Of a stretch of 20,000 bases of DNA, positions 572-20,000 are shown one piece after another. Under the pieces are notes generated by a model, which ran no database searches, had not been told where the DNA came from, and was given only the letters and a program-made list of their open reading frames with translations. Source of the stretch: Folioceros fuciformis (taxonomy: Eukaryota); NCBI GenBank assembly GCA_049999805.1, contig JBNGIO010006003.1, positions 123,584-143,583 of the forward strand. The letters run 5' to 3'. The stretch's first letter is position 1. Every line of letters starts with the position of its first letter. Both the position numbers and the translations under genes were made by a program.

Positions 572-1904
572 TGACACCGCGTCCTCCTCCGCTCCTGGTG
601 CCTACCCTCGCCCCGGCCCCTGCCGCTGGCCAAGAGCGGTCAGTGGATCTCGGCGCGCAGGCTGCAGCGCGCGGGAAGCGCACAATGCGGCGGCTGGGGT
701 TGGCGCGAAGTCGCGGGGAGCATGTTGCACCCGTAGCAGCGGGATGTGATGCAGGAGGAGACGGAAGAATGCAGAGGGTTTCACCGCGCTCGCACTCTCG
801 CCGAAGGGAGAGAGAAGCGATGGACGGAGAGGGAGAGAGAGAAAGAGTCCGTGGTCACCACAGAGCACAGCACAGGCACCAGCTCCAAATCACACACAAT
901 CAATCACTGTGCGTAAAAACGCGCGGCAGTCCACAAGCCAAGGCCCAAGGGGCTTTCATTTCCACATATGTATGTACATGCGTCCTTCCCTCCCTACTTC
1001 TGCTACTCCAATTCCACTCCACAGTGGGCCTTCAAAAAAAGGTCGGGTCCATTGTCCCACTTGCTTAACTTAAAAACAGGCCAGCCAGTCAGCCCAACCC
1101 AGCCCAGCGTCGTACGCTGCTCTGCCATCCCGACATGCCACGCTAATTACCCTGTCTCTCTAGACGCCTTGCGTCTTGCAACGGTGTCCGCTAACTGGTC
1201 CCTATGCACTCGGCGTCATCGTCACTGCGGCGATATTTCCTTTTATGCTTGCTTCTTGCTTCGGGCCCCGCCCACGTCCCGTCGCATTTCAAAAATAAAA
1301 AAATCTCCTTCAACTGCACATCCTCCAACCACAAATCCTCCTCCATCTCACCAAATTCCCCCTTCACTCGCACTAACCCGGGCATGCACAACACCAGTCA
1401 AAAATCTTCCCTATCCGGCTTACATCTTGAATGAATGGGCGGCCATCTTGGTATTCAAGATAAGCTTCATACCAATCTCACAATCTCTCTATCTTACCGC
1501 CATGAAGGCTCGAAGAGGTGGGAGCAGAGGTCTTGCTGCATGTATCATGCATTGCTTGTGAACATTAGTACACCATTGTGGTCCGCACATATGTACTTAG
1601 GGTCTGTGTGTGTACTATTTCCAAACATTGGTGACATCGTTAGAAGGAACACCCGGTGGTACTTGTTTGCTTGTATACAAACTGGTGCATGTGATGTCTC
1701 AGAGCAAGAAGAAACTTGGGGATGTTCGATGATTGTGATGTTGTACGTCCTGGTTTTACATCTGCACCTTGGGTGGTGACTCGCTTGATGCTGTACTGTA
1801 CATGTGCTGGTGATGATAAATTTTCAAAGCATGGAGATCGAAGTCCACATCCCTGATAAAAGTGCAATTCTGCAGAAAGGCTCATTGTGCTCTAGGACTT
1901 ATTG

Positions 1905-2100: not shown

Positions 2101-2420
2101 CAATGTCGCCTCTTAGTCATGCAGATGTGTTGCCATCTTGTCCTTGCTTCATCACCTCTGTGTTACCTTGGTACCTACTTGCGCCTTCCTTTCTTCCTTC
2201 TTTCTTGCATGTTGCAATGTCTTCTCTTAGTCATGCTTGCCCCTTCTGTACCTTGTTACACCTTCCTTCCTTCCTACATGTTGCAATGTCTTCTCTTAGT
2301 CATGCTTGCCTTACACCTTCCTTCCTTCCTACATGTTGCAAATGTCTTCTCTTAGTGCTGTAATGTCTTCTCTTGGTCATGCTTGCGCCTTTTGTCCGCA
2401 GTGTTTCTCTTAGCCATGTG
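2101..2420. repeat. Degenerate tandem repeat with core catgttgcaatgtcttctcttagtcatgcttgc (about 6 full or partial copies) and CCTT-rich linkers
   Basis: Core copies at about 2101 (partial), 2208, 2277, 2332, 2362 (partial) and 2403 (partial). Two linkers share ttacaccttccttccttccta. Confidence 0.85.
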
Positions 2421-2634
2421 GAAGCATTTCATAACCGACTTGTGTCTTCTTGCTGTGTCTTCTTGCCGCACTACATTGTGGTACAGTGAACTTTATGCCT
2501 TGTGCTCGTGCACTTTGATGAGACAGTTGTCTACCTTTTCTAGCTCAATAAGTGAACTCATATATAAGTTCTAGGGCTAGGCAAGTCAACTCAGATAATT
2601 CAAAGTGTAGACCTACCTAGAGTTTTTGCAGCTC

Positions 2635-2696
2635 GCAAGCTCGTTCGCTCCCAAGGCATGTAAAGCAAGCTCCTTCGCTCCCAAGGCATGTAAAGC
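2635..2696. repeat. 30-bp tandem duplication
   Basis: gcaagctc(g/c)ttcgctcccaaggcatgtaaa at 2635-2664 and 2665-2694, with one mismatch. Confidence 0.92.
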
Positions 2697-3644
2697 TTTT
2701 ACAACTAGCCAGTCCCATTGGATAGGGCTTCTAGCATAGGTGTCTACCCCATTGCGTACGGCTCTCACAAGCTGTGAGTGCCATAGAACCTTTTAGGGTT
2801 TTGTGTGTATAGAATTATATGTGTAGATGAATCCTCTAGGACACAGAGGCACATTCTAAAAGGGCCCTTTGAGACAAGGAAGGAAGGCACATTGTGGAAG
2901 GGCTCTTTGACCAAGGGAAGGGATGCTGCATGAAGTAAGATAGATAAACATTGAAGTGGGAAGAAGATAGCTCCGGTCGTTGGACCTTTGGCGTGGTAGG
3001 ATTCAACAAAGATGTGAGAAACGACGTGCAAGATAAAATATGTGACAGAAAATGAAAATAGCTAATATAGCGAGAGCCTTACGTTGCAACGGAGTTGGTG
3101 AGGCCGAGTGTTGTGTGCAAAGACGATCGACCCTACAGACACGATCGTCACCAGGGACATCTCGACGACGTCCGGGCCTCGTCTCCACGATATCCCTGCC
3201 TCGTCTGCGGAGAAATATCCCGTAAATCGATGGGGACGTGGAGTGACAGGAATCATCAACAGTGTGCGGGAATCGTAGTTTACCACGCAACCTGAGTTGG
3301 AATCGGCAGTTTTATACACACAAGTGTCCCCAAGGGAGCAAGCAAGTCACCGCGGTGGAGGGGCGATGCCGGAAGGTTTTGTGGACGACTTTGGAAGGAC
3401 GAAGTACATCACGAAATGTAGGAATCAATCACACGAAACAGACGCCATTGGAATCACGCAAACATTGCACTTCTCGGAGGCGGCAGCAGTGTTCCCACCA
3501 TTCCACTCTTGGCTTCCTCGATTTCCAGACTCCGGACGACTTTCCTCATCACCACCTACTGAGGCTGTAGTTTGGTGCCTTCGTAGCACGTGGATGGGAT
3601 GTGGAGAGAGGCTCACCAAAATTGTTGTAACTCGTTTCTTCCTT

Positions 3645-6600
3645 TTACCCTGTGAGAACTCCTGCTAGAATCTCGCTCTTGCCACGAACTGTAATGGTGT
3701 AGGCGAGGCGGATGGCATCCAGCCACCCTTCCATCAGCTCCCAGGAATCTGCTACCTGCAGGCCGACATCGTTTTCAGGATCAGAAGAGAGGCTGGGGTT
3801 CAGGTGGCGGACAGCAGGGAGAACGTGGAGACCGGACTCACAAAGTATTGTTGCCTGGTGCTTGTGTCGATCCGGAAGCCGCCCCCCACAGGCAGGCTCA
3901 GGTCGGCAGATGGAGTCATGTAGACGATGTCCTCCAGCTCCATTCTGAAGGAGGAGATCTTGACCGGTGTCTTTGCCATGGACGGACTCGAGGGCTCCGA
4001 CCCGCCTGGGTTAGTTATCCTTCGCGAGAAATTTTTGGCGAGCTTCTCTTCTGGTTTATCCATCTTGCAGGTTACACGGTCAAGATCGATTCACGTTAGG
4101 GCTTACAAAACATTCCTCAGCACTCAAAAGTGAACCAGGTAGGTGCACTGAAGTTCGATAGATACCTCGTAGAACGCCTCATGGTCGATGACAAACCACA
4201 ACCTCTTCCAGTCATTATGCGGGGCTAGAGAATCATCCCCGGGATGAACAAGCAAGTAGCCTGCCTTCAGGTATGGCAGAGGAAGCTGCAGCCATTGCAA
4301 ACACTGCATGTCAGATGGACGTTTCATCACGCGTCACAAGAACACAATCCCAAAATTCTCATCGTCTTCTAATAGACTCAGGAGGGGACGAACGAGCACC
4401 ATTGATCTGACAAGCCGAAGAGCACTCCTGTAAACCTGCCGGCTTCAACCCACACAAGACTAACGGTGAGAACACAACACAGCACAACTTCAATTGGGCG
4501 TGAAGCCTACCAGAGCCCACAGAGGAAACAATCTACAAACTTCGATGGTTCAAGAGGATCCAATGACCAACCGGATAGTCGGGCTTCAAAGAATGTGCAG
4601 CGGCGATGTAGATGGCTGATTGGCTGTACAGTTCAGAAGGCATGTGGTCTGGTCGAGATACTTTCCGACCACTTCGAAGCGTGTCCTCAGCTAGGCCATA
4701 CTGCACATGGCACAAGGAAGTTATTGGCTTGCAATATGCATTTCAGGAGTGAAATGCAAAAAAGGGGAACCACAGGGCTCCGTCATCTCAACACACTCAC
4801 CAGGACAGTACCCAGGTTGTACACTGCTCGATGAAAGTCAAAGCGGAGTCCTATTGCAGCCCGAAACTGCAACAGAATCAAACGAGTGGTGAGTTTCTCC
4901 CTTAGGCAAAATGGATGAGGCAAAAGTGACGACAAAAATTGCAGCTCAACTGTCTTTCACCCTTGAAAGCAATCGACTCGTGGTGTCGGTGAGCGAGAGA
5001 GGGGAATGGGTGGCGGTGGGGAATGAGGGTGCTGCAGTCTATACTTAGCTTACCTTTCTTATTGCACTCCTTATGATTCCACGCTTCTCCTTAAGTGGAA
5101 CTATAGCGCCAAGCTCCTGCGACAGTCGACACCCTTCAGAAACTTTGCAAACATATCACACGGGACCAGTCCGTGTTGCAAACAGTGGGTTGTCCCACCT
5201 GCAGTGCCAGTCCCCAGTTGTTGAGAGCCTGCAAATCACCACAAGAGTTAATCGTCTGTGCTAGGCAGTTACTCACGACAGCACCCTTTTCAATACAAAA
5301 GCAACTGCTGATCTACAAAAGAATGCCCTGAGATGCTAGGGCCCAGGCATCCACCTGCGGGCTGTTCCAGTTGAGCTGCAAAGACCTTTCGTACTTCTCA
5401 CAAGCCTGCACAGGTGCCCAATGACCCCACTTATTTCTATCCCCACTGCGAGGACTGAAGGGACCCTAAACTCGAAGCCTGCAATGCACAATCCAATCCC
5501 ATAAACTTGAAGCACAAACAGGGAAGTTGGAACAAAACCTGCTTCCAAAGTTCCTCTGCCTCCTTGGTTCTACCCCTGATCTTTGCACGATCAGAAATGG
5601 CAATCGCCCAGTTGTAGTACGCCTGGTTGCAACCATCAAACTCTCACTGTGAGAATCGCTGAATAACACATGAACAACAGCTTCTCCCACCACCGGAAAG
5701 ATGGCCCCAGGGCCCGGAAACTGGAAAATACAGGGTGTTCACACCTCATGGAGCGACGGGCAGATACTAATCGCAGCTTCGTACTTGCTGCACGCATCTT
5801 CAAGCAGCACATCCTTTCCCGGGGGGCCACCATCTAGTGGCGTGTTATCCGCGGTTTCCTGCGCCCACGTACAAAGAAAAGACTCTGAAAAGAGCAACGC
5901 CTCCTGAGCCCCCAACCCACAGTCCCGACGATCATGACACCCAACCTCCCACGAACTCCGCACCAACTCACCTGGAGCACCAAAGCCCAATTGTACATGG
6001 CATCGAAGTCATCCGCGTTGGCAGCAACCGCCCTGGAGTACCTGAACCAAAACAGCCCAAATCCCACAATTCAGCATCCCGATCCCAGGATCTCGCTCAC
6101 TCACAATCCAATTCTCACCTCCTGGCAGCAAAAGACAACATCCTTTGCCGAGAGTGCTGATCATCCTCCCCAGGCACTGCACTACTGCGGANNNNNNNNN
6201 NNNNNNNNNNNNNNNNNNNNNNNNNNNNNNNNNNNNNNNNNNNNNNNNNNNNNNNNNNNNNNNNNNNNNNNNNNNNNNNNNNNNNNNNNNNCTTCTCCTC
6301 CACGATCTCACTCACATGCGCTTGAACTTCCACGTGCACTTGCTCCCCGGTCACCTGCTCCTCGATCTTCCCCAGCTGCCCCTCCACTTTCTCTTGCTCC
6401 TCAATCCTCTGCTCCTGGATCCCATTCCCATGCTCCTCGATCTCACCCACCTGCCCCTGCACCTGCTCCCGCTCCTGCTCCTGCTCCTCGATATCGCCCG
6501 ACTGCTCCTTAGCCTCCGTCACAACCTCGGGGTGCCCCTCCACAGGTTCCTCGATCTCACTACCCCGCACGGCCTCCTTCCCACAGTCCTGCTCAGGCTG

Positions 6601-6786
6601 CTGATCAGCCTCCTTCCCAGAGTCCTGCTCAGGCTGCTGACCAGCCTCCTTCCCAGAGTCCCGCTCAGGCTGCTGACCAGCCTCCTTCCCAGAGTCCTGC
6701 TCAAGCTGCTGATCAGCCTCCTTCCCAGACTCCTGCTCATCCACGAGCACCTCAGAGTCCCCGGTTGCCGTGGCCATCCCGGGCAT
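3645..6786 (-). CDS. HLB1: HLB1-like protein (HYPERSENSITIVE TO LATRUNCULIN B1 family; acidic N-terminus, TPR repeats, C-terminal PH-like domain); 13 exons
   Basis: Hand-spliced exons, all GT-AG and phase-consistent: 6786-6119 (spans the N gap; alternative ATG at 6777), 6041-5972, 5858-5745, 5622-5539, 5405-5355, 5228-5199, 5116-5054, 4866-4801, 4700-4572, 4435-4400, 4285-4166, 4063-3842, 3755-3645 (TAA). The product has HLB1-type motifs: [158 protein letters not shown]...LAGVLTG*. Introns are 77-187 bp. Confidence 0.92.
6192..6291. other. Assembly gap (100 N placeholder) inside HLB1 exon 1
   Basis: Exactly 100 N, next to Glu-rich repetitive coding sequence. The true length is unknown. Confidence 0.99.
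6572..6739. repeat. 36-bp coding minisatellite (about 4.7 copies) in HLB1 exon 1, encoding EQDSGKEA(G/D)QQ(P/L)
   Basis: Unit starts (gcctccttccc) at 6572, 6608, 6644, 6680 and 6716, an exact 36-bp period. Confidence 0.93.
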
Positions 6787-6896
6787 CCACGATCTCCAGG
6801 GCTGTAGTAGAGGCCCGCCTAAATTGAAAATTCGCGACTCATTTCTGATGCCCAGCCCTTGGCTAGCATGCTCTGGTGGGCTCACCTGTGCGCCAA

Positions 6897-7020
6897 TTTT
6901 ATACAACCCCGCCACATAGCGGCAAAGAAACCATGGGACGAAGGAAGCTTCCGGTTTCCGCCATGCCCTAAATCTCGGACTCGTTGGTACACATGGGGCG
7001 ACTGGGCCTCGGACTGGGCG
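6897..7020 (-). promoter_or_regulatory. Putative HLB1 core promoter: TATAAAA box with upstream site II-like TGGGCY motif
   Basis: Minus-strand TATAAAA at 6903-6897, about 110 bp before the ATG at 6786. A duplicated gactgggc motif at about 7000-7019 includes one TGGGCC. Confidence 0.4.
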
Positions 7021-7043
7021 GGTCTGCGCTGTCTTTGCATTTA

Positions 7044-10000
7044 CTACTGGCTATCTCCGCAAGAACAGAAGCCATCCTTAAACCGATGAACGCGATGGGC
7101 ATCTCTAATAATTATCTCTCGATGTTCTATTCTCGAGATGACCTTGGTGCCGGCGTGGCAATGGCCACACATCCTGAGATTCTTGCTGACCACCAGAGTG
7201 GTGCCCGGAGGGGTGTTGAGGAGGCCGAAAGCTAGAGCCAGCTTTTCGGCATGTTTGCACAAGGCATCTTCACTTTCCTGGAGAGGTCCAGGCCCGAGCA
7301 CCGGGTTCGAGTCCCTGCATGCCTCGAAAAGTGTGTTGAGGCTGTTGAGCTTGGCCGAGGTGTCGTCCCTACTTCTGCCTACTATGAATTCGTGTACCTG
7401 GCTACCCACCTCGATGAGGGCCCTGGCGGGCTTCTTTTGGGCACCTGCGGACTGCATCATGGTTTCCACTTGGTCAACATCCGCCCACCTGCCCGCTTCT
7501 GCGTAGATGTCGGACATGAGGGCGTAGGCGGAGGCATGTTGGGGTACCAGGTTCACGAGGCGGTGGAAGCAGCTCCTTGCTAGCTCGACATGGTTGTGGG
7601 CCTTGCAGGCTGTGAGGAGAGATGTCCACCCGATGGAATCCTGCTGTAGTGGCATTGTGTGGAGCATGGTTGCTGCTTCCTCCAGCCGGCCGGACCGCCC
7701 CAGGAGGTCTACCAAGGAGTTGTAATGCTCGACCTGGGGCTGGATGCTGTAGTCACGGGACATCATGGTGAAGTAGTTCTGGCCCTCGGTCACTAGACCC
7801 GCATGGCTGCATGCCGCCAGCAGACATGTGAAGGTTGCAGCATCAGGTTGGACTCCCTCTTCCTGCATCCTGGCGAAGCACTGCATAGCCATGGCGCAGT
7901 TGTTGTGCTGACCGTAGCCGCCGATGAGGGCGTTCCAAGTCACCAGATCCTTCCTCCCTGTACTATCGAATACACCCTGTGCGTCCTCCAGGTATCCGCA
8001 TTTTGCATACATGTCCACCAGACTGCTACCCACAAACGCGTCATTTTCAAGTCCCTTGTGCAGGATGTCAGCATGTATCTGTTGTCCTTCCTGAATGGCT
8101 CCCAGTTTGCCACAGACCTTTAATACACACGAATATGTGACAAGGTCAGGCGTCAAGCTTTCTTGCTGCATTCTGAAATATGCCTTAAGGCCATCGTGGC
8201 CGAGCCCATGCTCCGCGCATCCGGCGATGAGGGTGTTCCAGGTTGCCACATCTTTTGTCTGCAACCTTTCGAACAAGACACATGCATCTCCCATGCTTCC
8301 GCATTTGATGAACATGTCTATCAAGGCGTTCCCAACGCACAGATCTGATTCAAGTCCTCTTGCCAGAACCTCAGCATAAACCTTCCTGCCCTCCTCTAAG
8401 TTTCCTAAGCTACCACATGCTTTCAAAATGCTTACATAGGTGAAATTGTCTGGGACCGCGGCACTCAGAAACATGCTCCTGAAAAGTTCTATCGCCTCTT
8501 GCCCCAGCTCATGCTGAGCGTAACCTGCAATCATGACATTCCATGTCACCAAGTCCCTGGCCAGCAATCTGTCGAATACTCTGCGAGCATCCTCCAAGCT
8601 CCTGCATTTGGCGTACATATCAACCAACATGCTCCCAACCAGCTCGTCCTCCTCAGCTCCTCTTTCCAAAATTTGGACATGAATCTGCCTGCCTTCGTGT
8701 AAGTTTCCAATGATAGCACACGCTCTGAATAGGGCCGCATATGTGGCATTGTTAGGCACAATTCCATTCCCTTGCATCCTCATGTACAGCTTGTGGGCTT
8801 CATCCACAGGCCCCTGATGGACGTATCCCGCAATCATGGCAGTCCATGAAACCACGTCTTTTGAAGGCAATTTGTCAAACACCCGTTGGGCATCTTCCAT
8901 GCTTCCGCATTTTATGTACATATCTAACAGACAGTTTCCCAGTGAGCTATCAGCTTGAAGTCCCCTTTCAAGGACACGGGCATGAATCTGCTTGCCTTTC
9001 TCCAAGTGCCCTACACTGCCGCATGCTTTCACAACAGCGACAAGGGTTACATGATTGCCTGCCAACTTCCCATCCTGCTGCATAAGGGCGTAAAGTTGAA
9101 GCGCTTCTAGACCTCGTCCATGCTGAGCATATCCTGCAATCATAGCACTCCATGTCACCACGTTCTTTTTTTGCAGTCTGTCGAAAACTCCGCGGGCCTC
9201 CTCCAGACTACCACATTTGGCATACATGTCGACCAAGGTGCTACCAATATAGATATCAGCTTCCAGTCCCCTTTTCAGGACCTCAGCGTGAATCCCCTTC
9301 CCCTCTTGTATAGCTCCGACATTGCCACATGCTTTAAGAATGCTGACAAATGTGAAGTGGTTTGCTGGACACTTGCCCTCCTGCTGCATCTTCACATAAA
9401 GACTGAGCGCTTCCTGACCACACCCATTTTGAGCATAACCTGCAAACATAGCATTCCATGTCACAACATCTGTGCTCGGCAAATTGTCAAAGACATATCT
9501 GGCCGTCTCCAGGCTCCCACATTTAGCATACATGTCTACAAGGGCGCTCCCGACAAATACATTTGTGTCAAATCCATACTCCACCACATCCGCATGAATC
9601 AACTTGCCTGAATCTAAATCCCCTGCACTGGCACATGATTTCAGGACAGCAGCCAGCACAAAATCAGTCGGTCTGACACTTGATTGTCGCATTCGCACAT
9701 ACAATTTGATAGCCTGCTCAGCCTTTCCATGGTCACAGTGTGCTGAAATGATCGAAGCCCATACGAAAGTGTCGGGAGCAGCCAACGTGTTAAAAACCCG
9801 CTCTGCTTCCATCAAACTCCCCGTGGCAGCGTACATCCGAATCAGGTAGTTCGCCATGAAACAGTCCAACGCAGACCCAACTTGTCCAGAGAGGGCATGG
9901 ACACGCCTGCCCACCTCAAGGTTTCTAGTCGCAGTGCACCCTTTCAGGAGAATGTACAACATGTCATTCGGGATGGAAATTCCTCTCCGGTGCATCACGT

Positions 10001-10109
10001 TCACAGCCTCCAGCGCACTTTCTAGCGCTCCCTCCGTCCCGAAATCTGCAAGCTCCAATAGGTCTTCAACAGCCCCCATCCTGCAGGGTCGATCAATACT
10101 GTACCACAT
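7044..10109 (-). CDS. PLS-class pentatricopeptide repeat protein with E1, E2 and DYW:KP domain (candidate U-to-C organellar RNA editing factor); main exon
   Basis: The uninterrupted ORF parses into L-S, six P-L-S triplets, P2-L2-S2 (23 motifs), then E1 (SIGWTSLLTACKAH), E2 (ASAYALMSDIYAEAGRW), KKPARALIEV...VHEFIVG, HAEKLALAFGLLNTPPG, KNLRMCGHCH and IIIRDAHRVHRFKDGFCSCGDSQ*. The ORF-track start at 10115 is GTG; in-frame ATGs are at 10109 and 10079. The true start may lie in upstream exons. Confidence 0.95.
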   Translation of the reverse strand: MWYSIDRPCRMGAVEDLLELADFGTEGALESALEAVNVMHRRGISIPNDMLYILLKGCTATRNLEVGRRVHALSGQVGSALDCFMANYLIRMYAATGSLMEAERVFNTLAAPDTFVWASIISAHCDHGKAEQAIKLYVRMRQSSVRPTDFVLAAVLKSCASAGDLDSGKLIHADVVEYGFDTNVFVGSALVDMYAKCGSLETARYVFDNLPSTDVVTWNAMFAGYAQNGCGQEALSLYVKMQQEGKCPANHFTFVSILKACGNVGAIQEGKGIHAEVLKRGLEADIYIGSTLVDMYAKCGSLEEARGVFDRLQKKNVVTWSAMIAGYAQHGRGLEALQLYALMQQDGKLAGNHVTLVAVVKACGSVGHLEKGKQIHARVLERGLQADSSLGNCLLDMYIKCGSMEDAQRVFDKLPSKDVVSWTAMIAGYVHQGPVDEAHKLYMRMQGNGIVPNNATYAALFRACAIIGNLHEGRQIHVQILERGAEEDELVGSMLVDMYAKCRSLEDARRVFDRLLARDLVTWNVMIAGYAQHELGQEAIELFRSMFLSAAVPDNFTYVSILKACGSLGNLEEGRKVYAEVLARGLESDLCVGNALIDMFIKCGSMGDACVLFERLQTKDVATWNTLIAGCAEHGLGHDGLKAYFRMQQESLTPDLVTYSCVLKVCGKLGAIQEGQQIHADILHKGLENDAFVGSSLVDMYAKCGYLEDAQGVFDSTGRKDLVTWNALIGGYGQHNNCAMAMQCFARMQEEGVQPDAATFTCLLAACSHAGLVTEGQNYFTMMSRDYSIQPQVEHYNSLVDLLGRSGRLEEAATMLHTMPLQQDSIGWTSLLTACKAHNHVELARSCFHRLVNLVPQHASAYALMSDIYAEAGRWADVDQVETMMQSAGAQKKPARALIEVGSQVHEFIVGRSRDDTSAKLNSLNTLFEACRDSNPVLGPGPLQESEDALCKHAEKLALAFGLLNTPPGTTLVVSKNLRMCGHCHAGTKVISRIEHREIIIRDAHRVHRFKDGFCSCGDSQ

Positions 10110-10164
10110 AAACACAAGCTACTGACCCCAAATAGCTATCAACATGCCACTGCACGCCAAATAC

Positions 10165-10760
10165 CTGAAAGAGTTTCCTTGGTTACATCCGTAGTCAACA
10201 ACTGCGTCCCCAACTAGTCCGTTCCTTGAGGGCAGGGCAGGAGCTCCCCCTGAACCCAAGTTTCGTCCAGTGCTTGATTGAGACCCAGGACAGAAGGTCC
10301 CCCTTGTCGTGCAGTGCATGAAGGCCGGATACATGCAGTTTCTCTGTGGTGATCACCGATAGTCAACTGGAAACTGTGGGCAAAGCAACGCTGGCCAGGT
10401 CTCAATGACCATCTCGAGCCTTGCACAACCCAACCAGATGGCAGGCAGATTGGAATCACAGCAGATTTTACCTTTAAGAACCCCCAATTCCACGACTGAG
10501 AGCGAGCGGCCATGATTGTTGCCCCCATAACACCCCGGCCAATTGCAACACCTGCAAACCAGCTCAAACATCAACACCCATCCAGCAACCTCCTGCCAAT
10601 CTAATCCGAGCCATCACAGATACCCTGCGCATGACAACAGCTCACCATTTTCACATGGGTGGCGCTCAGCTGAGGCCCTTAAGGTCGACAAGCGCCTATA
10701 CCATGCTTTCAATGGCACGACAGGGCTGAATCTGCTCTGATTCAGCCAGGCCAGCACCAT
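10165..10760 (-). CDS. Tentative upstream exons of the PPR gene encoding an organellar transit-peptide-like N-terminus
   Basis: A phase-consistent model is 10760-10646 (MVLAWLNQSRFSPVVPLKAWYRRLSTLRASAERHPCEN; donor G|GTGAG), 10551-10472 (acceptor TTTGCAG, donor AAG|GTAAA) and 10343-10165 (acceptor CACAG, donor CAG|GTATT), joined to 10080 through CCCTGCAG. The introns are 94, 128 and 84 bp. Exon 1 is rich in R, S and L with no acidic residue in the first 30 aa. The middle acceptor is the least certain. Confidence 0.5.
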
Positions 10761-10993
10761 TCTTCCCTCAAGACGACCACTTCTCTTGGTCGCCCAGTGA
10801 GGTGACAGACTGCGGGGTAAGAAGTGCACAGGTACGCCTGGTACTGGGAAGCTGGACGTAGCGGCCTGAAACAGGCAGAACAGTAGTCGTTCTGTAGTTC
10901 ATCGGGTGGATGAAGTCGTCCAGATACAACAAATCGTGTTCTCAGCTTTGATACATATATGTGAAACTTGCTGGGTACCGGCAAGTGACAGCA

Positions 10994-11025
10994 TTGCGCA
11001 CCTACAGCTATGGGTAAGTGCGCAA
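10994..11025. promoter_or_regulatory. Inverted repeat in the divergent PPR/GCN1 intergenic region
   Basis: Arms ttgcgcacctac (10994-11005) and gtaagtgcgcaa (11014-11025) are 11/12 complementary around an 8-nt loop, and each arm holds the palindrome TGCGCA. The regulatory role is inferred from position only. Confidence 0.45.
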
Positions 11026-11291
11026 GACAAATTCTTGGTAGACCTTAGGGTTGTCTAGGGGTAGCTCTATGAAACGAGAAGGCGACAGCTTTCGATTCGA
11101 CTCTTGAATCAGGACAAGGTAGGCTGGATCCACTACAGGTGAATAGAATCAAAGCGTAGAACAGGGAAGGGCTCGTGCCAGGTATGGGGGCGTTGGAGAG
11201 AATGAGCTTGTGAGCTTTGGCTCATCAATCTTGGATCTGGGAATGTGAAATTGGCAGCTGTATCCATTGTTCCTGCTGGGGCCGTGGCGGA

Positions 11292-14200
11292 ATGGCGGTC
11301 TCGAACGGCGAGACGGGTGAAGGTGTAGAGGAACGCATCAGGGGTATTCTGCGGGACCTGCATCTTCCGGAGACCAGGGCAGATCATGTTGCAGTGGATG
11401 GAGAGATCAGAGAAAGTCTGAAGAGCGATCAGGTGTTCTTCAAAGCATTTGCTGGTGCCTTAGTTCTGGCGGCTGAGAAAACTTGGCGCACAGGGGCAGG
11501 ATCTGCGTGTTACAAACTGTTAAGATGGTCATGTATTCTGATTAGAGAGTGCGCTGAGATCGTGTCTTCAAAATCTGCGTTCTCCAGGTTAGTTTCTGTA
11601 CAGGGGTCTTTACTCTACGGACTTGCAGGGGCGTCTCGTCGACTGCAAAATGCTAGCAATCGCGCTATATTGCAATTGCTTTCCCAGAAACCCAATCTTG
11701 CCAAGCGTTATGTGGCTGAGCTGCAGGGGAGTGCTGCCGATCCGGTCAGCAGCAGTGGACTCGCCAGAGTTCTCATTCAGCTTGCAACAAGGGATGCAGA
11801 GTTTCTTGAGGAGCACAGGGCAGCTTTCCTTGGACTGTATATCTCTCTGGTATGGTCGTCCAAGGAGAAGCCGTCCAGGAGGTTGATTGAAACATTCCGG
11901 CCTCTTCTGAGCATCTTAAATCACAGTGAATTTGGGAACGTGGTGCAGCCTGCAGTGGTCAAAATGCTTCGCAGGAATCCGGAAACGGTGATGGACGCTG
12001 CCTGTGCTCTTTTCAGCTCAGTAAATTTGGACATGAGTAAATATGCTGTGGATGTCTACACAGCTATTCTCCCACAAGCTAGGCATAGTGATGAAGGGAG
12101 GCGGAAAGACAGTGCCACTGTGGTAGGCAACTTGGCTTTGCACACGAGTGACCAAAAGCTTGTACTGAGCATGTATCAGACTGTCAAGTCGGTGTTGGGC
12201 GGGTCTGAAGGAAAGCTGACATTCCCGTACCAAAGGGTGGGTATGATCGGAGCAATTTCGGCCCTATCGAGGACTGAAGGGGGCGAGCAAATTTCTTCTC
12301 TTGCTGCCTCAATTTGTAAGGATCTGATGATACTGTACAAGGATGAAGGAAATGAAGAAGTCAGGCTTGGGATATTGTCGTCTTTGGGTGTGTGGCTTCC
12401 TCGAGCCAAGAATGGTTTGCCTCAAGATTGTGTCAAGTTCTTTGCCGCTGGTCTGAAGGAGAAGGACAACTTGAGGCGGGGGCATCTTCGTTGTTTAAGG
12501 CTTGTTTGTAGCGATCCTGATTTTGCTACTCAATTACAGACGCTAATTGATCCTATGTTGCAGCTGGTGAAAAGTGGCATAACAAAGCCTGCTCAAAGGG
12601 TGGATGGTATTTTTGCCTTCCTTATATCAGTTTTGATTGCAACAGTGGACAGCAAAGCCAACGACTTGCTTAGCAAGGAGAAACTTTGGCCTATGGTCTT
12701 TCAAAAGGACTCTGTGCTGTTCTCGACATTATTTATTCCTAAGATGGCTGTTGAAGATTGCATCGCTCTTTTGCAACTTGCAGAGGTTTCTGTTTTGCAG
12801 TTTCCTCACCGTGTAACAGACAGCTCATCTACAGCTTCAGACGTGTTCAAGCTGGTTGTCACCCTTCTTTGGCATCCTGATCTCAATGTTCGAGAAAGGG
12901 CCTCTAAGGTTGTGTCGCAGTTGCATAAAGACAATCTTCAGTGGTCAAGGATACTTCTCAGTTCCTTCTGTGAGGCTATTGTTGCTGTAGAGGAGCGACT
13001 GTCCTCTCAGAAGCTTGGTGACATTGCAGAAACTAATACTGAGTCAACTGCTTTGGCACCGTTTGAGACCCTTCTTGGGAAGGCTCTGGTTGCTGTTGCC
13101 TCCCCAAATTTTGAGGGGAATGCAGATGCATGTGTACAGATTCTCCTCATTTCTCATCATCCTTGCGTCGTGAGAGGTCGTAGGAAGGATGTCGTGTGGA
13201 AAGTCGTTGTGAGGTCATGTAGGAAGCATGGGGCAAACCTTGTCTCAGCTTTGGAATCAGAACCTGTACTTTTGTGCAAGTACCTGCTTGGGCGCAGTGG
13301 GTTAAGCAGCAGTCGACCGTCAGAAGCGCTGGCAGCTGTGTCAGCCCTGGCAACTGCGATGCAGACCTTGCCTCAACGTTTGTTCTGTCATTTCTTTCTT
13401 GAAGTTCAACTGCTAGGCCGCCAAGCATTTGATTCTTTAACTGAGAAGGATAGAAAGGATGAATCTTCTGTAATTGAAGCTTCATTGGCTATTCCTGTTC
13501 AACAGATGAAAAGACAAGTTGGAGGACCTGGAAAGAAGGACACCAAAAGGCCAGGAAAGGGAGCCAGTGATGCTGAGAAGTCAAAGTCATCCAAGGAGCT
13601 GGCAAGAGAATTGCAGATGAAGGAAGAAGCTGCAGCACAGCTGAAGGTAAGGGCGGGGAAGGAAAGGGTCTCGTGGCTACTGGAAGCATTGGGTGCTGTG
13701 GCTGCTGCCAATCCCACCTTTGTGCAGAATCAGCTTTCTGTGCTGATTGAGTACGTTGTACCTCTCTTGAGTTCTCCAATAGTGGGAAACAAGGCCTTTG
13801 AGGTTATGGTGAAGCTAGCAGGATGTGTGCCACCTTCGTTGAGGCACTTTGCTCCGGATATTGCTGTGGCGCTGTCACTTGTGGCAGGTTCGCCTTCCAC
13901 AATCTCAGAAGAATTCTCTATCTCCTTGGAACAGCAGGAGATAAGACCTGGATTGGTTAGAAGACTTGTTTTGGGAATGGTAAATGCTTGCAAGGATGGG
14001 CCACTGCCCGCACCAACGTTTTCTCTATTTTTTCCTATTATAGAGAAGGTTCTTTCTATGCCCACCAAAAGTAGCGTGCATGACCAGCTTCTGTACATCT
14101 TCACCTTACATTCTTTCACTGATATGTCACTTCCCCATCTGAAGATGATTTTGGTGTTATATAAATTGTTGGAATGTGTACCTTCCTATCAGCAGCAGAT

Positions 14201-17200
14201 TGTAGGCTTGTTGAACAAGCTTTGTACTGGACTCGACAGCTCAGACCTGGCAGAGGCTCTGTCAGGGCTGTTCTCTGAGCATTTTGCTGTGCGCGCGGCA
14301 TGCTTGAATGCCGTCAAGTATGTGCCTTGCCTTGCGAGGAGGGATGCCCCTCCTGATAGGACTGTGGCTGCCCTCATCTGGATGGCCATGTATGATCCAG
14401 AATGGAAGTGTGCTGAGCTTGCAGAGGAGATCTGGGACCTGTACTCTCATGAACTTGGAAGAGATTATGCCTCGCCTCTTCTCAAGTCGCTTGGACATCC
14501 AAACCTGAATGTGCGGCTTGCAGTCGCTGGAGGTCTTGCTGCAGCTATGGACGAGTATACAACAACTGTGCCTGAAACGCTGTCCTCCCTTTTCTCATTG
14601 TATGTAAGGGATCTTCCTATTGGGGCTGGGAAGGAGGATCCTACCTGGCATTCAAGAGACGGAGTAGCTTTGGGGCTGCATGCTGCAGCAGACATCCTTA
14701 CTGATCGTGACCTTCCTGTTGTTGCCACGTTCCTGATCTCAAGGGCACTTGCGGATAGAAACCCAGAGGTGCGCATAAGGATGCTGAATGCTGGGGTTGC
14801 AATCATAGACAAGCATGGGAAGGAGAATGTTGGTCTGCTCTTCCCAATTTTTGAGAACTATCTTGACACCAAGCCTGCTGACGAAGATCAGCATGATCTG
14901 GTGCGTGAAGCAGTTGTGATTTTCATGGGTGCCCTTGCCAGGCACCTCTTACTGGATGACTCCAAAGTTTCAGCATTTTTGGACAAGTTGTTGGAGGTTC
15001 TGAATACTCCATCTGAGGCAGTTCAACGAGCAGTTGCCAAGTGTCTTCCTCCTTTGGTCCCTTCTCAACAAGATAAGGCACACACTCTTGTTACGAAGCT
15101 TCTTAGTCAATTGCTGCAGAGTGATAAGTATGCGGAACGTCGAGGGGCAGCATTTGGCTTAGCAGGCGTTGTCCAAGGTGTTCGGTTGTCAAGCCTTAAA
15201 AAGTATGGCATCATGGATGCCCTGAAAGCTGGAGCCCAAGATAAGAATGCCAATGCCCGCGAGGGAGCCTTACTTGGCTTAGAGTGTCTCTGTGAATTTC
15301 TTGGCCGGTTGTTTGAACCGTACTTGATTCACATTCTGCCCCTTCTTCTGGTGTGCTTTTCGGATCAGGTCTTGGCTGTTCGAAGTGCTGCAAATGCTGT
15401 AGCTCGTGCTATGATGGCTCAGTTGACTGGTCCAGGGGTGAAATTGGTCCTTCCAGGTTTGCTCAAGGGTCTGGAGGATAAAGCTTGGCGTACAAAGGAA
15501 GGGAGCGTACAGTTATTAGGAGCCATGGCATTCTGCGCTCCACATCAGTTGTCACATTGCCTTCCGACAATTGTTCCGAAGCTCAGTGAAGTCTTGACGG
15601 ATACACATCCCAAGGTGCAGTCAGCTGCACAAACTGCTCTGCAGCAAGTTGGCAGTGTGATTAAAAACCCTGAAATTGCTGCTCTTGTTCCTACACTTTT
15701 GACAGGAATCGCAGATCCAAATGAGCATACCAGGTCTTCCCTTGATGTGGTTTTACAGACCACATTTGTCAACTCCGTGGATGCTGCATCTTTGGCTCTG
15801 CTTGTCCCTGTTGTCCACAGAGGATTGAGAGAGAGAGGTTCTGACACAAAGAAGAAGGCTGCACAGATTGTTGGCAACATGAGTAGTTTGGTGACGGATC
15901 ATGAGGATATGCTTCCTTACCTTAGTCTGTTGATACCTGAAGTGAAGAAGGTTCTGGTTGACCCAATCCCAGAAGTGCGAACAGTTGCAGCTCAAGCCCT
16001 TGGTGCATTGATCAAGGGAATGGGGGAAGAGAACTTCAAGGACCTGGTGCCCTGGTTGCTAGAAACGCTGAAGTCAGAGACAAGTGGTGTGGAAAGGTCA
16101 GGTGCTGCTCAAGGTCTCAGTGAGGTTTTGGAAGCACTTGGCACAAATTATTTTGAGTCACTATTACCTGACATCCTGCACAACTGCTCTCATCAGCGTG
16201 CTGCTGTCCGAGATGGACACCTCACTCTATTTAAGTACCTTCCAAGTGCTTTGGGTTCTAACTTTCAAAAGTATCTAGCAGAGGTTTTGCCCGCAATATT
16301 GAATGGTTTGGCTGATGAGAATGAAGCTGTAAGGGATGCTGCCCTGAGCGCTGGGCACATCTTTGTTGAGCACTATGCAACGACATCTTTACCTCTGTTG
16401 TTACCAGCCATAGAAGACGGGATATTTAATGAAAACTGGAGAATTCGGCAGAGTTCAGTAGAGCTACTGGGAGACTTGCTGTTCAAGGTTGCCGGAACTT
16501 CCGGCAAAGTAGTAATAGATGGTGGAAGTGATGATGAGGGTGCAAGCACTGAAGCACATGGTCGTGCAATCGTGGACGTTCTCGGCAAAGAGCGGAGGAA
16601 TGAAGTTTTGGCAGCAGTGTACACGGTCCGGTCTGATGTCAGCCTCTCTGTACGACAAGCAGCATTGCATGTTTGGAAGACTGTGGTCTCCAACACGCCA
16701 AAGACTCTGAGAGAAATCATGCCCGTGCTAATGAACACTTTGATTTCAGCGCTTGCTTCAACATCCACAGAGCATCGTCAAGTGGGTGCTCGATCCTTAG
16801 GTGAGCTCGTTAGGAAAATGGGAGAAAGGGTCCTCCCGTCTATTATTCCAATACTTGCGCGGAGGCTTGTTGACGAAAACGAAAGCACAAGGCAGGGTGT
16901 TTGCTTTGGACTGAGTGAAGTTTTAGCTAGTGCGGGGAAGCACCAGCTTGTGTCGTACATGGTGGATTTGATCCCTACCATTCAGACTGCCTTATGTGAT
17001 AGCTCTCCTGAAGTTCGTGTAGCTGCAGGCATAGCTTTCAGTACTTTGTTCAAAAGTGCAGGTATGCAGGCAGTTGATGAGATTGTTGCTGCTCTCCTCC
17101 GGAACTTGGAAGACGAGGACAAGTCGGATGTGGCACTGAATGGTCTCAAGCAGATTCTTAGTGTGAGGGCGGCTGCAGTTTTGCCACATATTCTACCAAA

Positions 17201-18965
17201 GTTGGTCCACACTCCTTTGACGCCTTTCAATGCAAATGCCCTTGGGGCGTTAGCAGAGGTCGCAGGCCCTGGACTAAACGGATACCTGTCCACCATATTA
17301 CCTCCGCTTATATACGCCATGGGTGATGAAGATCAAGAGATAGCCTCCCTGACGAAGAAGGCAGCTGAGACGGTGGTTTTGGCTGTGGATGGTGAAGGCG
17401 TGAACTCACTTATTGGGGAGCTGAGTAAAGGCCTCGGTGACACACAGAGCGTTGTCAGGAGAGGTTCTGCGTACTTGACAGGGTTCCTGTTCAAAAATTC
17501 AAATGTTGAGCTGGAGGATGAGGTGCCGAGTCTGTTGACCACACTTATTGTTATGCTGACAGACCCTGACAGTAACACTGTTCAGGCTGCATTAGAGGCT
17601 CTAGCAAGTGTGACGGGCTCAATTCCAAAAGAGAACCTTCAGTCACATATCAAAGTTGTGCGCGATGCACTCTCTACTGCAAGAGACAAGGAAAGGCGGA
17701 AGAGGAAAGGGGATCGGATTCTCATTCCTGGGCTGTGCTTGCCTAAATCCCTGCAGACATTGTTGCCCATATTTCTTCAGGGACTCATGGGTGGTTCTGC
17801 TGAGGTCCGGGAGCAAGCAGCGGAAGGTCTTGGGGAGCTGATCGATGTCACCAACGAAATCACTTTGAAGCCTGTCATTGTCTCCATAACCGGGCCTCTT
17901 ATTCGAATTGTGGGAGACAGATTTACCTGGCAAGTGAAAAGTGCCATCCTGGCAACTCTGGGGATAGTCATTACAAAGGGAGGAATTGCCTTGAAACCAT
18001 TTCTCCCTCAGCTGCAAACGACGTTTATTAAGTGTCTGCAAGACAACTCAAAACCTGTGAGGTCCAGGGCAGCTTGGGCTCTTGGTCAGCTGAGTGCACT
18101 GAGCGTTAGGGTGGATCCAATGGTTGATGATCTCCTCACTCGCCTGCAGGCGTCTGAGAATGGGTTGAATGCAGTGCTGATTGCACTTCTGGGGGTGATG
18201 AAGAATGCTGGCAAGAATGTGAGCGCAAATGTGATCTCCAATGCTGTGGTAGCTTTGCAAGTTCTTCTCAATGCAGAAGAAGGTGACATCAGAGCGCTGG
18301 CAGCAAGGACGTTGGGAATCGTGTCAAAGTATGTTGATGATGGGAACTTTAGTAGGGTGCTGCAGAGTCTGGTAGCATCTCCCTCTCAGCCATGGCCCTT
18401 GCGACATGGCGCAACTATTGCATTGGCATCCGTGCTAAGGCACTCCTCTTCTCGGATCTGTGTGTCCAGTGCTCAGCTGTCAATTGCAACATCAGTCATT
18501 TGCGCGAGAGCCAGGGATGACAAGTCCCCGGTGCGGGAATATGCCGCCAGGGCCATGGGATTTTTGCTGAGTTTTCAGCTGAAAGAGAGCACATGTGGTT
18601 CCGACTCCCTGCCTGAGCTGGTGCCAATGCTGGTGGACCTTCTGAATGATGACACTAGCGAGGTGCGGAGAAGGGCCCTCAGCAGCCTCAAGTTGATGTC
18701 CAAGGCAAATGCAGGTGCATTGGTGGGGTATATTAAGCTGCTGGGCCCAGCCATCGGGAACTGCCTTAAGGACAGCAGCTCCCCAGTCCGATTGACTGCA
18801 GAGCGTGCTGCCTTCCACCTCTTCCAGTTGCCAAGAGGACCAGAGAATCTCCAACTGGCTCAGAAGTATATCACTGGGCTGGATGCCAGGCGCATAGCCA
18901 AGCAAGCAGAGTTCAGCGATGCCAGCGACGATAGTGAGGGAGACTCTTCTCCCTCTGGAGTCTAG
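11292..18965 (+). CDS. GCN1: GCN1 / ILITYHIA translational activator (HEAT-repeat GCN2 activator), single-exon, about 2557 aa
   Basis: One continuous ORF; first ATG at 11292 (the ORF-track start at 11217 is TTG). It contains GCN1 signature segments: VLNTPSEAVQRAVAKCL, KYAERRGAAFGLAGVV, LEDKAWRTKEGSVQLLGAMAFCAP, LPTIVPKLSEVLTDTHPKVQ, KKKAAQIVGNM, LVDPIPEVRTVAAQALG, VERSGAAQGLSEVL, NWRIRQSSVELLGDLLFKVAG, ITGPLIRIVGDRF, LKPFLPQLQTTFIKCL, and the plant C-terminus AQKYITGLDARRIAK. Confidence 0.96.
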   Translation: MAVSNGETGEGVEERIRGILRDLHLPETRADHVAVDGEIRESLKSDQVFFKAFAGALVLAAEKTWRTGAGSACYKLLRWSCILIRECAEIVSSKSAFSRLVSVQGSLLYGLAGASRRLQNASNRAILQLLSQKPNLAKRYVAELQGSAADPVSSSGLARVLIQLATRDAEFLEEHRAAFLGLYISLVWSSKEKPSRRLIETFRPLLSILNHSEFGNVVQPAVVKMLRRNPETVMDAACALFSSVNLDMSKYAVDVYTAILPQARHSDEGRRKDSATVVGNLALHTSDQKLVLSMYQTVKSVLGGSEGKLTFPYQRVGMIGAISALSRTEGGEQISSLAASICKDLMILYKDEGNEEVRLGILSSLGVWLPRAKNGLPQDCVKFFAAGLKEKDNLRRGHLRCLRLVCSDPDFATQLQTLIDPMLQLVKSGITKPAQRVDGIFAFLISVLIATVDSKANDLLSKEKLWPMVFQKDSVLFSTLFIPKMAVEDCIALLQLAEVSVLQFPHRVTDSSSTASDVFKLVVTLLWHPDLNVRERASKVVSQLHKDNLQWSRILLSSFCEAIVAVEERLSSQKLGDIAETNTESTALAPFETLLGKALVAVASPNFEGNADACVQILLISHHPCVVRGRRKDVVWKVVVRSCRKHGANLVSALESEPVLLCKYLLGRSGLSSSRPSEALAAVSALATAMQTLPQRLFCHFFLEVQLLGRQAFDSLTEKDRKDESSVIEASLAIPVQQMKRQVGGPGKKDTKRPGKGASDAEKSKSSKELARELQMKEEAAAQLKVRAGKERVSWLLEALGAVAAANPTFVQNQLSVLIEYVVPLLSSPIVGNKAFEVMVKLAGCVPPSLRHFAPDIAVALSLVAGSPSTISEEFSISLEQQEIRPGLVRRLVLGMVNACKDGPLPAPTFSLFFPIIEKVLSMPTKSSVHDQLLYIFTLHSFTDMSLPHLKMILVLYKLLECVPSYQQQIVGLLNKLCTGLDSSDLAEALSGLFSEHFAVRAACLNAVKYVPCLARRDAPPDRTVAALIWMAMYDPEWKCAELAEEIWDLYSHELGRDYASPLLKSLGHPNLNVRLAVAGGLAAAMDEYTTTVPETLSSLFSLYVRDLPIGAGKEDPTWHSRDGVALGLHAAADILTDRDLPVVATFLISRALADRNPEVRIRMLNAGVAIIDKHGKENVGLLFPIFENYLDTKPADEDQHDLVREAVVIFMGALARHLLLDDSKVSAFLDKLLEVLNTPSEAVQRAVAKCLPPLVPSQQDKAHTLVTKLLSQLLQSDKYAERRGAAFGLAGVVQGVRLSSLKKYGIMDALKAGAQDKNANAREGALLGLECLCEFLGRLFEPYLIHILPLLLVCFSDQVLAVRSAANAVARAMMAQLTGPGVKLVLPGLLKGLEDKAWRTKEGSVQLLGAMAFCAPHQLSHCLPTIVPKLSEVLTDTHPKVQSAAQTALQQVGSVIKNPEIAALVPTLLTGIADPNEHTRSSLDVVLQTTFVNSVDAASLALLVPVVHRGLRERGSDTKKKAAQIVGNMSSLVTDHEDMLPYLSLLIPEVKKVLVDPIPEVRTVAAQALGALIKGMGEENFKDLVPWLLETLKSETSGVERSGAAQGLSEVLEALGTNYFESLLPDILHNCSHQRAAVRDGHLTLFKYLPSALGSNFQKYLAEVLPAILNGLADENEAVRDAALSAGHIFVEHYATTSLPLLLPAIEDGIFNENWRIRQSSVELLGDLLFKVAGTSGKVVIDGGSDDEGASTEAHGRAIVDVLGKERRNEVLAAVYTVRSDVSLSVRQAALHVWKTVVSNTPKTLREIMPVLMNTLISALASTSTEHRQVGARSLGELVRKMGERVLPSIIPILARRLVDENESTRQGVCFGLSEVLASAGKHQLVSYMVDLIPTIQTALCDSSPEVRVAAGIAFSTLFKSAGMQAVDEIVAALLRNLEDEDKSDVALNGLKQILSVRAAAVLPHILPKLVHTPLTPFNANALGALAEVAGPGLNGYLSTILPPLIYAMGDEDQEIASLTKKAAETVVLAVDGEGVNSLIGELSKGLGDTQSVVRRGSAYLTGFLFKNSNVELEDEVPSLLTTLIVMLTDPDSNTVQAALEALASVTGSIPKENLQSHIKVVRDALSTARDKERRKRKGDRILIPGLCLPKSLQTLLPIFLQGLMGGSAEVREQAAEGLGELIDVTNEITLKPVIVSITGPLIRIVGDRFTWQVKSAILATLGIVITKGGIALKPFLPQLQTTFIKCLQDNSKPVRSRAAWALGQLSALSVRVDPMVDDLLTRLQASENGLNAVLIALLGVMKNAGKNVSANVISNAVVALQVLLNAEEGDIRALAARTLGIVSKYVDDGNFSRVLQSLVASPSQPWPLRHGATIALASVLRHSSSRICVSSAQLSIATSVICARARDDKSPVREYAARAMGFLLSFQLKESTCGSDSLPELVPMLVDLLNDDTSEVRRRALSSLKLMSKANAGALVGYIKLLGPAIGNCLKDSSSPVRLTAERAAFHLFQLPRGPENLQLAQKYITGLDARRIAKQAEFSDASDDSEGDSSPSGV

Positions 18966-20000
18966 ACTCGTTGACTAAAGATAATGTCTCATTTACCAGT
19001 TTTGTAGGCTTTGTAGGAAGCAACTGCATGGCAGTTTCTTTTTGGTACTAGCCATGGCATCCGGATTCGCGCATCACTTCTCCTTCCGTCTCTCGCTGAG
19101 TGTACAACATTCCGTATGTGAGTGCTGCTCTACTGTACTCTATTTGCCTTTTCCCAGGCAGACGTTTGACATTTAGCCTCTGAAGCCTGGGGTGGGGTAT
19201 ATTTGGAGCTCATGGCATTGCATCTATGGTGAGAACCGGACTCCGCACCAGGTTGATACCATACGTGTACTCAATTGCAGTCGCCGTTATATTACTCCGC
19301 AACTGTCGTACATCATTCCTACTGCAGACGCTGACTGTTGCCAGCGGTGCTGTGCATCCAGCCACCCACCCACCCAAACTCAATTCTCCATTCTGCGTTC
19401 TTTACCGAAATTCCCGAAGACTTATGTCAGTTCAGTCTACTTCAGGCCACGTAGCACCTTGTCTGCCCTGATTCCCGTCCTCCACCAGCAGGTCTGGTTT
19501 CCAGACACTATGTCAGGGTCAGGTCATTCCTCGCCCGCCGACTCTGGGTTCAATCCTCTCCGTCCTTACGTTTTCTCAAACGTAGCTCAGGATCCGGCAA
19601 CAACGATCAGCTATACGACGTCAGCAACCTCAAGCAGCCTCCGATTTGTTACAAGGAATAATAAAGAACAGTGCACCCGGAGGAGGCGATTGTGGGGGAA
19701 GCTTGCAAGGGTACAAGCTCGTCTCTCCTCTTTACGTGTTTCTCTCCGTTCTCTGCGCTTCTCCTTTCTGTCTAAGAAGGAGAGATGGAAGGAAGCCATG
19801 AAGGCAAGCTAGGGCGCCCATGTGGACTGGGTCTACGTACAGAGAATACACAGGAATCGGGAAATTGGACACAACAGGAGTTAGAAGGTCCGATAGAATA
19901 GGAATCAGGAGGTTCTGACCGAGAGAAGGCTGGATTCGGAGCCTGAGGAAAGAAACGGGTGCAGGGCACTTGTGGGAGTTTTCTTCCACTGGAAAGGCCG

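Follow-up and report, generated by a model that had tools for sequence, protein, structure and literature searches.

The subject of this analysis is a 20,000-nucleotide stretch of DNA from Folioceros fuciformis (contig JBNGIO010006003.1 of assembly GCA_049999805.1, forward strand, positions 123,584 to 143,583), the whole of which is referred to as the window. At 11292-18965 on the plus strand it holds a GCN1/ILITYHIA gene whose entire coding sequence is a single exon. Upstream of it lie, on the minus strand, an intronless PPR-DYW gene and an HLB1-like gene that contains introns. GCN1, a scaffold built of HEAT repeats, is bound to ribosomes, detects those that have stalled or collided and activates GCN2. 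The evidence described below indicates that the gene in the window has very probably been rebuilt from spliced RNA.

The coding sequence and its predicted product

The frame is open from the ATG at 11292 to a stop codon that ends at 18965 and comprises 2557 residues plus the stop (7674 bp). It is listed as 11217-18965, TTG 11217 being the nearest in-frame start upstream of the ATG. By our own arithmetic (3/64 per codon), about 120 stops are expected by chance in 2558 random codons. The protein product of the frame 11292-18965, designated P0001, matches, with scores well above the respective cut-offs, six Pfam models that follow one another in the canonical order: GNC1_N (PF24993, residues 178-309), HEAT_EF3_N (PF24987, 1283-1450), HEAT_EF3_GNC1 (PF24984, 1488-1573), HEAT_GCN1 (PF23271, 1963-2152), HEAT_GCN1_C_2 (PF25801, 2275-2522) and HEAT_GCN1_C (PF25786, 2371-2526), such that the C-terminal models reach residue 2526. 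In a protein search with P0001, 8000 candidates were scored, 1614 had E values of 0.001 or lower and the best 120 of these were listed; the homologue counts given below refer to 121 GCN1 proteins drawn from the listed matches (best 120 of 1614), including P0001 and its closest relative, P0003. Matches to named plant ILITYHIA/GCN1 proteins cover 99% of the query. Residues 983-2529 align with the Protein Data Bank (PDB) chain 8i9x_LR (E 4.7e-276). Matches to PDB 7nrc_A, labeled 'GCN1', and to elongation factor 3 were obtained with the EF3-like block. The open frame, the Pfam models, the homology and the DNA contigs described in the next section all define the feature as a single-exon GCN1/ILITYHIA coding sequence, and by homology the predicted product is a complete GCN1/ILITYHIA protein. 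An earlier note on this DNA had reported an uninterrupted frame of 7674 bp, and the same coordinates, with 2557 codons and a stop, were recovered here.

P0001 has the domain order and the length of the plant, yeast and mammalian GCN1 proteins, including the EF3-like HEAT block. The binding of ribosomes, GCN20 and GCN2, and a role in eIF2-alpha phosphorylation, are predicted solely because the sequences of the EF3-like and C-terminal HEAT regions are conserved. Compared with other land-plant GCN1 proteins P0001 is about 70 residues shorter: it is without a conserved segment of 40 residues (IF.T.EGVLS...RGRFKMY) and without the N-terminal stretch of about 40 residues that is typical of other GCN1 proteins.

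Among the matches listed, the closest relative is P0003 (72% identity, 2554 residues, single contig of 10,415 nt), followed by a liverwort protein with 61% identity, those of a lycophyte and a conifer with 60% and 59%, and those of a fern and a moss, both with 58%. Of the 121 GCN1 proteins, 21 were taken as rows of a tree rooted on Chara and 100 were left out. P0001 and P0003 form a clade with a support of 100 that lies within the land plants plus Chara, apart from the liverwort-moss, lycophyte, fern and seed-plant groups; its stem has a length of 0.25 and its tips have lengths of 0.21 and 0.22. The root-to-tip length of P0001, approximately 0.46, is within the range of 0.29-0.65 of the other land plants. 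Taken together, the tree, the DYW-type PPR neighbor and intron lengths of about 100 nt are most simply read as those of a hornwort. The gene is not evolving like a relaxed retrocopy and, because its rate is ordinary and its frame intact, it is, to judge from the sequence, under purifying selection, one of the two alternatives, next to a recent origin, that the earlier note had drawn from the intact frame.

Genomic DNA and transcripts across the gene

Four public sequencing runs were compared with the whole window at 80% likeness. Two are DNA, X1 from organism A and X12 from organism C, and two are RNA, X3 from organism A and X4 from organism B. Organism C is a species different from A, with a nucleotide identity of about 92% to the window gene. 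The HLB1-like gene at 3249-7050 (minus strand), recognized by homologue search, tblastn and RNA, served as an internal control; it includes a gap of 100 N at 6192-6291. Its exon 5437-5643 retrieves proteins named HLB1 by their sources, and tblastn with two HLB1 proteins yielded 13 colinear coding blocks, from 6171 to 3648 on the minus strand, which correspond to 12 introns. Four of the introns, at 3754-3839, 4064-4165, 4286-4399 and 4433-4568 (86, 102, 114 and 136 nt), have GT..AG borders on the minus strand and were confirmed by RNA: both X3 and X4 hold spliced contigs with the joints 3753/3840, 4063/4166, 4285/4400 and 4432/4569 (CT..AC on the plus strand). The same introns are present in X1, and no joint was found in X12. 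The 12 introns that had been claimed for HLB1, and with them the statement that the genome is not intron-poor, are thus borne out by the 13 blocks and, for four introns, by the RNA of two organisms. For a published hornwort genome (PMC7027989), 4.81 exons per gene and a GC content of 49.6% are given, with which the composition of the window agrees.

X1 is DNA since its contig 2312-6191 retains the four HLB1 introns that are spliced out in X3 and X4, and X12 is DNA since its contig 4557-5280 passes through HLB1 introns. X3 and X4 were classed as RNA from their spliced contigs; these contigs, together with the zero depth of both runs in the 1335-2668 bins, indicate RNA without much carry-over of DNA.

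The X1 contigs tile the window with 0 differences, and two of them (9510-15621 and 15593-19996) bridge both ends of the GCN1 gene into its flanks. X12 contributed six colinear pieces (10893-11529, 11738-13004, 13263-14432, 15363-16744, 17331-18117 and 18129-19142), four of them with 0 gap letters. The positions at which introns are to be expected were taken from an intron-rich orthologue, L005, described in the next section, whose inter-block gaps, mapped onto the window, define 40 ancestral intron positions. All 40 junctions lie inside X1 contigs and 25 of the 40 inside the listed X12 pieces, and at none of them was there an intron-sized insertion; the remaining 15 of the 40, which fall outside the listed X12 pieces (e.g., in 13005-13262, 14433-15362 and 16745-17330), are evidence neither way. 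Because the DNA contigs of organisms A and C are colinear across the ancestral junctions, contamination of the assembly by complementary DNA (cDNA) is excluded as the source of the intronless gene. The earlier note had named cDNA-derived sequence built into the contig as one finding that would speak against it. The 100-N scaffold gap at 6192-6291 shows that the assembly is not seamless, but X1 bridges the gene ends with 0 differences into flanks that hold introns and the DNA run of organism C is colinear as well, which leaves an assembly artefact with a negligible probability. Intronlessness is common to A and C and therefore predates their split. With regard to the intron content of relatives, for which a comparison had been suggested, the absence of introns extends to the DNA of organism C (25 of 40 junctions), so that it is the state of a lineage; intron-rich genes were found in the lineage of L005 and L002.

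Transcription follows the same colinear pattern. A single X4 contig of 8140 nt lies on 11024-19144 (547 differences, 9 gap letters), and X3 contigs lie on 11057-11840, 12080-12762 and 12929-19900 with 0 differences. Of the 40 mapped junctions, 39 are crossed colinearly by RNA contigs of organism A and all 40 by those of organism B, and in neither X3 nor X4 was there a splice joint in the GCN1 gene or its leader. The GCN1 gene is transcribed colinearly in two species, A and B, which answers the earlier note's proposal that RNA coverage be checked. The leader upstream of the ATG, defined by colinear RNA contigs, occupies 11024-11291 (plus strand), with no intron seen in the 5' untranslated region, and the trailer after the stop 18966-19144 (plus strand), its end being that of the organism B contig; ends of RNA contigs are not mapped transcript ends. 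The organism A contig extends 935 nt beyond the GCN1 stop, to 19900, whereas that of organism B ends at 19144. A transcription unit downstream of GCN1 may overlap; the ORF (open reading frame) 19192-19812 had no Pfam match.

The depth of the contigs bears on another explanation, according to which the intronless gene is a retrocopy and an intron-rich parental GCN1 persists beside it at some other place in the genome. The summed X1 depth over the gene, 10.6-11.3, is close to the depths of the two tiling contigs, 10.6 and 10.9, and X1 has no further contigs that match the gene with an identity of 80% or more, so that a second copy with at least this identity is not seen in X1. A copy with less than 80% nucleotide identity would escape this comparison. 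Among the protein matches listed, however, P0003 is the only one that exceeds 61% identity, and it shares both of the exon-unit deletions described below; in addition, signs of relaxed or accelerated evolution are absent from the gene, and it is transcribed in two species. The coexistence of a parental gene is unlikely on these grounds.

Intron-rich orthologues and the segments missing from the protein

A scan of metagenome contigs with P0001 revealed five loci, L001-L005. L005 and L002 are 96% alike and were hence counted as one lineage; L004 is a partial copy of the L002 gene. The GCN1 of L005/L002 is of the embryophyte type, its nearest relatives being liverwort and moss proteins with 61-63% identity. 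It spans 19 kb and is divided into 41 colinear blocks when aligned with P0001 and into approximately 50 when aligned with the Calypogeia protein. L003, which is moss-like, shares one intron position with L005, near residue 1553 of P0001. Arabidopsis ILA has approximately 60 exons. The many exons that the earlier note had ascribed to land-plant GCN1 genes thus have their counterpart in the 41-50 coding blocks of the L005/L002 lineage. Mouse Gcn1 has at least 53 exons (PMC7179835).

Positions 3-3122 of L001, in a 3.4-kb metagenome contig, contain an uninterrupted C-terminal GCN1 frame of 1040 residues that is moss- or liverwort-like, with 80% identity to Ceratodon and Calypogeia compared with 72% to the window protein. 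It is either a transcript that was assembled into the metagenome or a second, independent intron-poor GCN1, and it says nothing on introns.

In an alignment of ten GCN1 proteins, two deletions were common only to P0001 and P0003. The internal deletion removes a segment that is conserved from Chara to the angiosperms. L005 encodes it in an exon of its own, 120 nt long (8220-8339), with phase 0/0, the acceptor ...ggacag| and the donor |gttccc; this exon codes for 40 residues and is flanked by a 60-nt exon ending in ...KDIK and a 118-nt exon starting with EEVQVKE. L002 contains the same 120-nt exon with the same splice sites. When the spliced L005 peptide was aligned globally with P0001, a gap of 40 residues fell precisely on the exon (...KDRK | DESSVIE). 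In the window, the scar of the skipped exon is therefore at 13457..13458 (plus strand), the junction at which residue 722 (K) adjoins residue 723 (D). Of the 121 homologues, 119 contain the exon peptide and only P0001 and P0003 are without it, and no relic of the 40-residue exon was found elsewhere in the window (best E 0.87). With about 50 junctions in 2600 residues, the chance that a deletion in the DNA of an already intronless gene would meet both junctions was estimated, post hoc, as about 1%. Because a random deletion would so rarely coincide with both junctions, the exon was presumably removed while introns still existed, either by skipping or by loss from the intron-bearing gene, and the present gene would descend from the resulting spliced RNA.

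The same observations weigh against the idea that the intronless state is ancestral or that the gene was acquired from an intron-poor donor. The gap corresponds to one exon of an intron-rich gene, the peptide of which occurs in Chara and 118 other homologues; the gene takes its place among streptophytes in the tree and is 55-61% identical to land-plant GCN1; and mouse Gcn1 is also intron-rich. This explanation has next to no probability, and horizontal gene transfer and ancestral intronlessness were both rejected on the basis of the tree placement and the exon scar.

The second deletion common to P0001 and P0003 concerns the N-terminus. Exon 1 of L005 encodes residues 1-46, and the homology of P0001 starts near residue 57 of L005, after about 14 unrelated residues. 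The first codons of the gene, approximately 14 (11292-11335, plus strand), are thus non-homologous, and the conserved segment of about 40 residues encoded by exon 1 is absent, as it is from P0003 in the ten-protein alignment. No relic of exon 1 was detected in 10100-11420 (all E values 0.05 or higher). A blastp-short search with the exon-1 peptide found matches in 23 of the 121 homologues; it was too insensitive and was not used as a count. The N-terminal deletion would fit a 5'-short cDNA or a transcript with an alternative first exon, a weaker argument than the internal exon scar.

Thirteen angiosperm-type GCN1 proteins of 2587-2588 residues (P0029, P0032-P0034, P0036, P0037, P0040-P0042, P0046, P0049, P0063 and P0097) lack roughly the first 40 residues of the usual forms, which are about 2629 residues long, and one of them is named 'isoform X2'. 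This suggests that transcripts without the coding part of exon 1 occur in other plants.

Origin of the gene and comparison with known systems

Because one 120-nt exon and the exon-1 segment are both missing, the template of the present gene would have been a spliced mRNA from which an exon had been skipped. According to the preferred scenario, this mRNA, short at its 5' end, was reverse-transcribed and the cDNA may have been inserted at its present locus beside the start of the PPR-DYW gene. That gene, at 7044-10115 on the minus strand, is intronless, encodes 1023 residues and is oriented head to head with GCN1, the two starts being 1177 bp apart; the inserted gene may share its upstream region as a promoter. 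The retrocopy would then have taken over from its intron-rich parent, which would subsequently have been lost. These events would have preceded the split of organisms A and C and probably also that of the P0003 lineage. Two parts of this scenario go beyond an RNA origin, namely that the cDNA was inserted here and that it replaced the parent; together they would make the gene an orphan retrogene, and the balance for them is even. The full sequence of events, in which a fossilized alternative transcript of more than 8 kb, without exon 1 and without a conserved cassette exon, replaced a parent with approximately 50 introns in the stem of the lineage and beside the PPR-DYW gene, is put forward tentatively, as somewhat less probable than that. 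The earlier note had proposed that a full-length mRNA was reverse-transcribed. An RNA origin of the gene is supported by the exon-precise gap and the colinear DNA of two species, but the template was probably not the canonical full-length form.

The most serious competitor is loss of the introns in situ, in which a cDNA recombined with the parental locus, all introns were erased at once and the gene never moved. Such a conversion requires no decay of a poly(A) tract and target-site duplications, both of which are missing; it accounts for the single copy seen in the X1 depth and for the ordinary evolutionary rate; and it fits the exon-precise gap equally well, provided that the converting cDNA was the exon-skipped isoform. 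Arguing against it is the expectation that exon 1 and the original 5' region would have been kept, whereas the exon-1 segment is missing and no relic of it is present within 1.2 kb upstream, in a space that is occupied by the head-to-head PPR-DYW gene. Loss of introns mediated by cDNA is expected to favor the 3' end, and the erasure of at least 40-50 introns in one tract of 7.7 kb, the 5'-most included, would be unusual. Since P0001 and P0003 both lack the exon-1 segment, a 5'-short cDNA fits better than conversion in place, which is possible but doubtful.

Several points weigh against an origin by insertion of a retrocopy or against the evidence on which it is based. The sequence that follows the GCN1 stop is free of A or T runs of 6 nt or longer, and A does not exceed 47% in any of its 30-nt windows. 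A target-site duplication was likewise not found: direct words common to 10700-11300 and 18966-19600 are at most 8 nt long, within the 7-12 nt reached in 200 shuffles. X1 may be the window's own assembly sample and hence no independent witness. One X12 contig has a 4-letter insertion behind 17330, which would shift the frame of organism C if it is real but may also be an error at the end of the contig. The P0003 contig, which bears on the protein deletions, may be DNA or RNA. The exon boundaries are taken from one intron-rich lineage (L005/L002, 96% alike), and an ancestor that still had introns may have lost the exon before retro-processing took place. Finally, an anchor motif that lies at residue 75 in P0001 and at residue 72 in P0003 lies no farther in than residue 68 in 14 of the 88 other sequences in which it could be located; it was not found in 31 of the 121. 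The N-terminally short forms elsewhere are probably annotated short isoforms or truncated calls, but since they exist in other GCN1 sequences the exon-1 argument is weak.

The earlier note had also stated that neither a poly(A) tract nor a target-site duplication is visible and had taken this to indicate an old event. The tests of runs, A content and shared words confirmed the first statement, and the second is in accord with an intronless state common to organism C (about 92% nucleotide identity) and exon-unit deletions common to P0003 (72% amino acid identity). Because both hallmarks are absent the label retrogene is inferred. Their loss is expected for an event older than a split at 72% identity, and the absence of poly(A) is therefore not decisive; the tail and the target-site duplications would have decayed since the insertion. 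A tblastx comparison of the window flanks with the flanks of L002, L004 and L005 gave 0 hits; these flanks barely overlap, and the divergence is deep.

The remaining features of the window concern the neighboring genes. The gap 6192-6291 sits in the first coding exon of the HLB1-like gene and is mis-sized, since 142 letters take its place in contigs of X1, X3 and X12. The N-terminal part of the HLB1-like protein, at about 6520-6800 (minus strand), contains a tandem acidic repeat of approximately four units, ...QQPE(Q/R)DSGKEAGQ... The PPR-DYW protein ends in ...CSCGDSQ instead of the usual DYW, and its gene has very many paralogous contigs at 80-90% likeness, with a depth of up to 3866 in X12. 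Window positions 1-1334 are GC-rich (64% in 1-1000), with X3 RNA-contig depths of 229 and 99 in the first two bins, and probably belong to an expressed gene that runs off the left edge; the single ORF scanned there, 917-1561, had no Pfam match, nor did any of the ten ORF pieces scanned in the flanks match a Pfam model above the threshold.

The loss in one step of approximately fifty introns from an essential 7.7-kb single-copy gene would be rare in an intron-bearing plant genome, and the exon-precise scar would be an internal proof of RNA origin. As the character is common to at least 2 species and probably to the 72%-identical relative, it may serve as a dated lineage marker. It bears on the question of whether long plant genes can run without introns, with respect to intron-mediated enhancement and mRNA export, and it is a natural deletion test of a conserved GCN1 segment, which, if the reading is true, would be dispensable. 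For annotators, the single-exon model is real and is not to be flagged as cDNA contamination. A single-exon GCN1 is undescribed in the full-text literature searched; the supplementary gene tables of hornwort genome papers may list it.

The closest known systems are the orphan retrogenes, i.e., retrocopies that have taken the place of parental genes with introns (Ciomborowska et al. 2013, PMC3548309). They resemble the GCN1 gene of the window in being single-exon, functional, the sole copy seen and under purifying selection, with multi-exon orthologues elsewhere, and the old ones have likewise lost the hallmarks of retroposition. The GCN1 gene is unusual with respect to those described there in its size (a coding sequence of 7.7 kb, with at least 40-50 introns removed), in its occurrence in a bryophyte-grade plant and in having kept a skipped-exon isoform, while its relocation and the loss of the parent are inferred only. 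If an orphan retrogene, it would be among the largest described. A second comparison is offered by angiosperm ABCB1 genes (PMC5716013), in which introns disappeared one at a time and in parallel, leaving between one and nine, and the losses are mainly ascribed to non-homologous end joining. Intron loss in ABCB1, like that mediated by reverse transcriptase, is precise and keeps the frame, as in GCN1; unlike the ABCB1 genes of that account, GCN1 lost every intron plus one whole exon and the coding part of exon 1. RNA-mediated intron loss and orphan retrogenes are thus processes of a known kind, and what is unusual in the GCN1 gene is the scale, the target, an essential single-copy stress sensor, and the scar left by a skipped exon.

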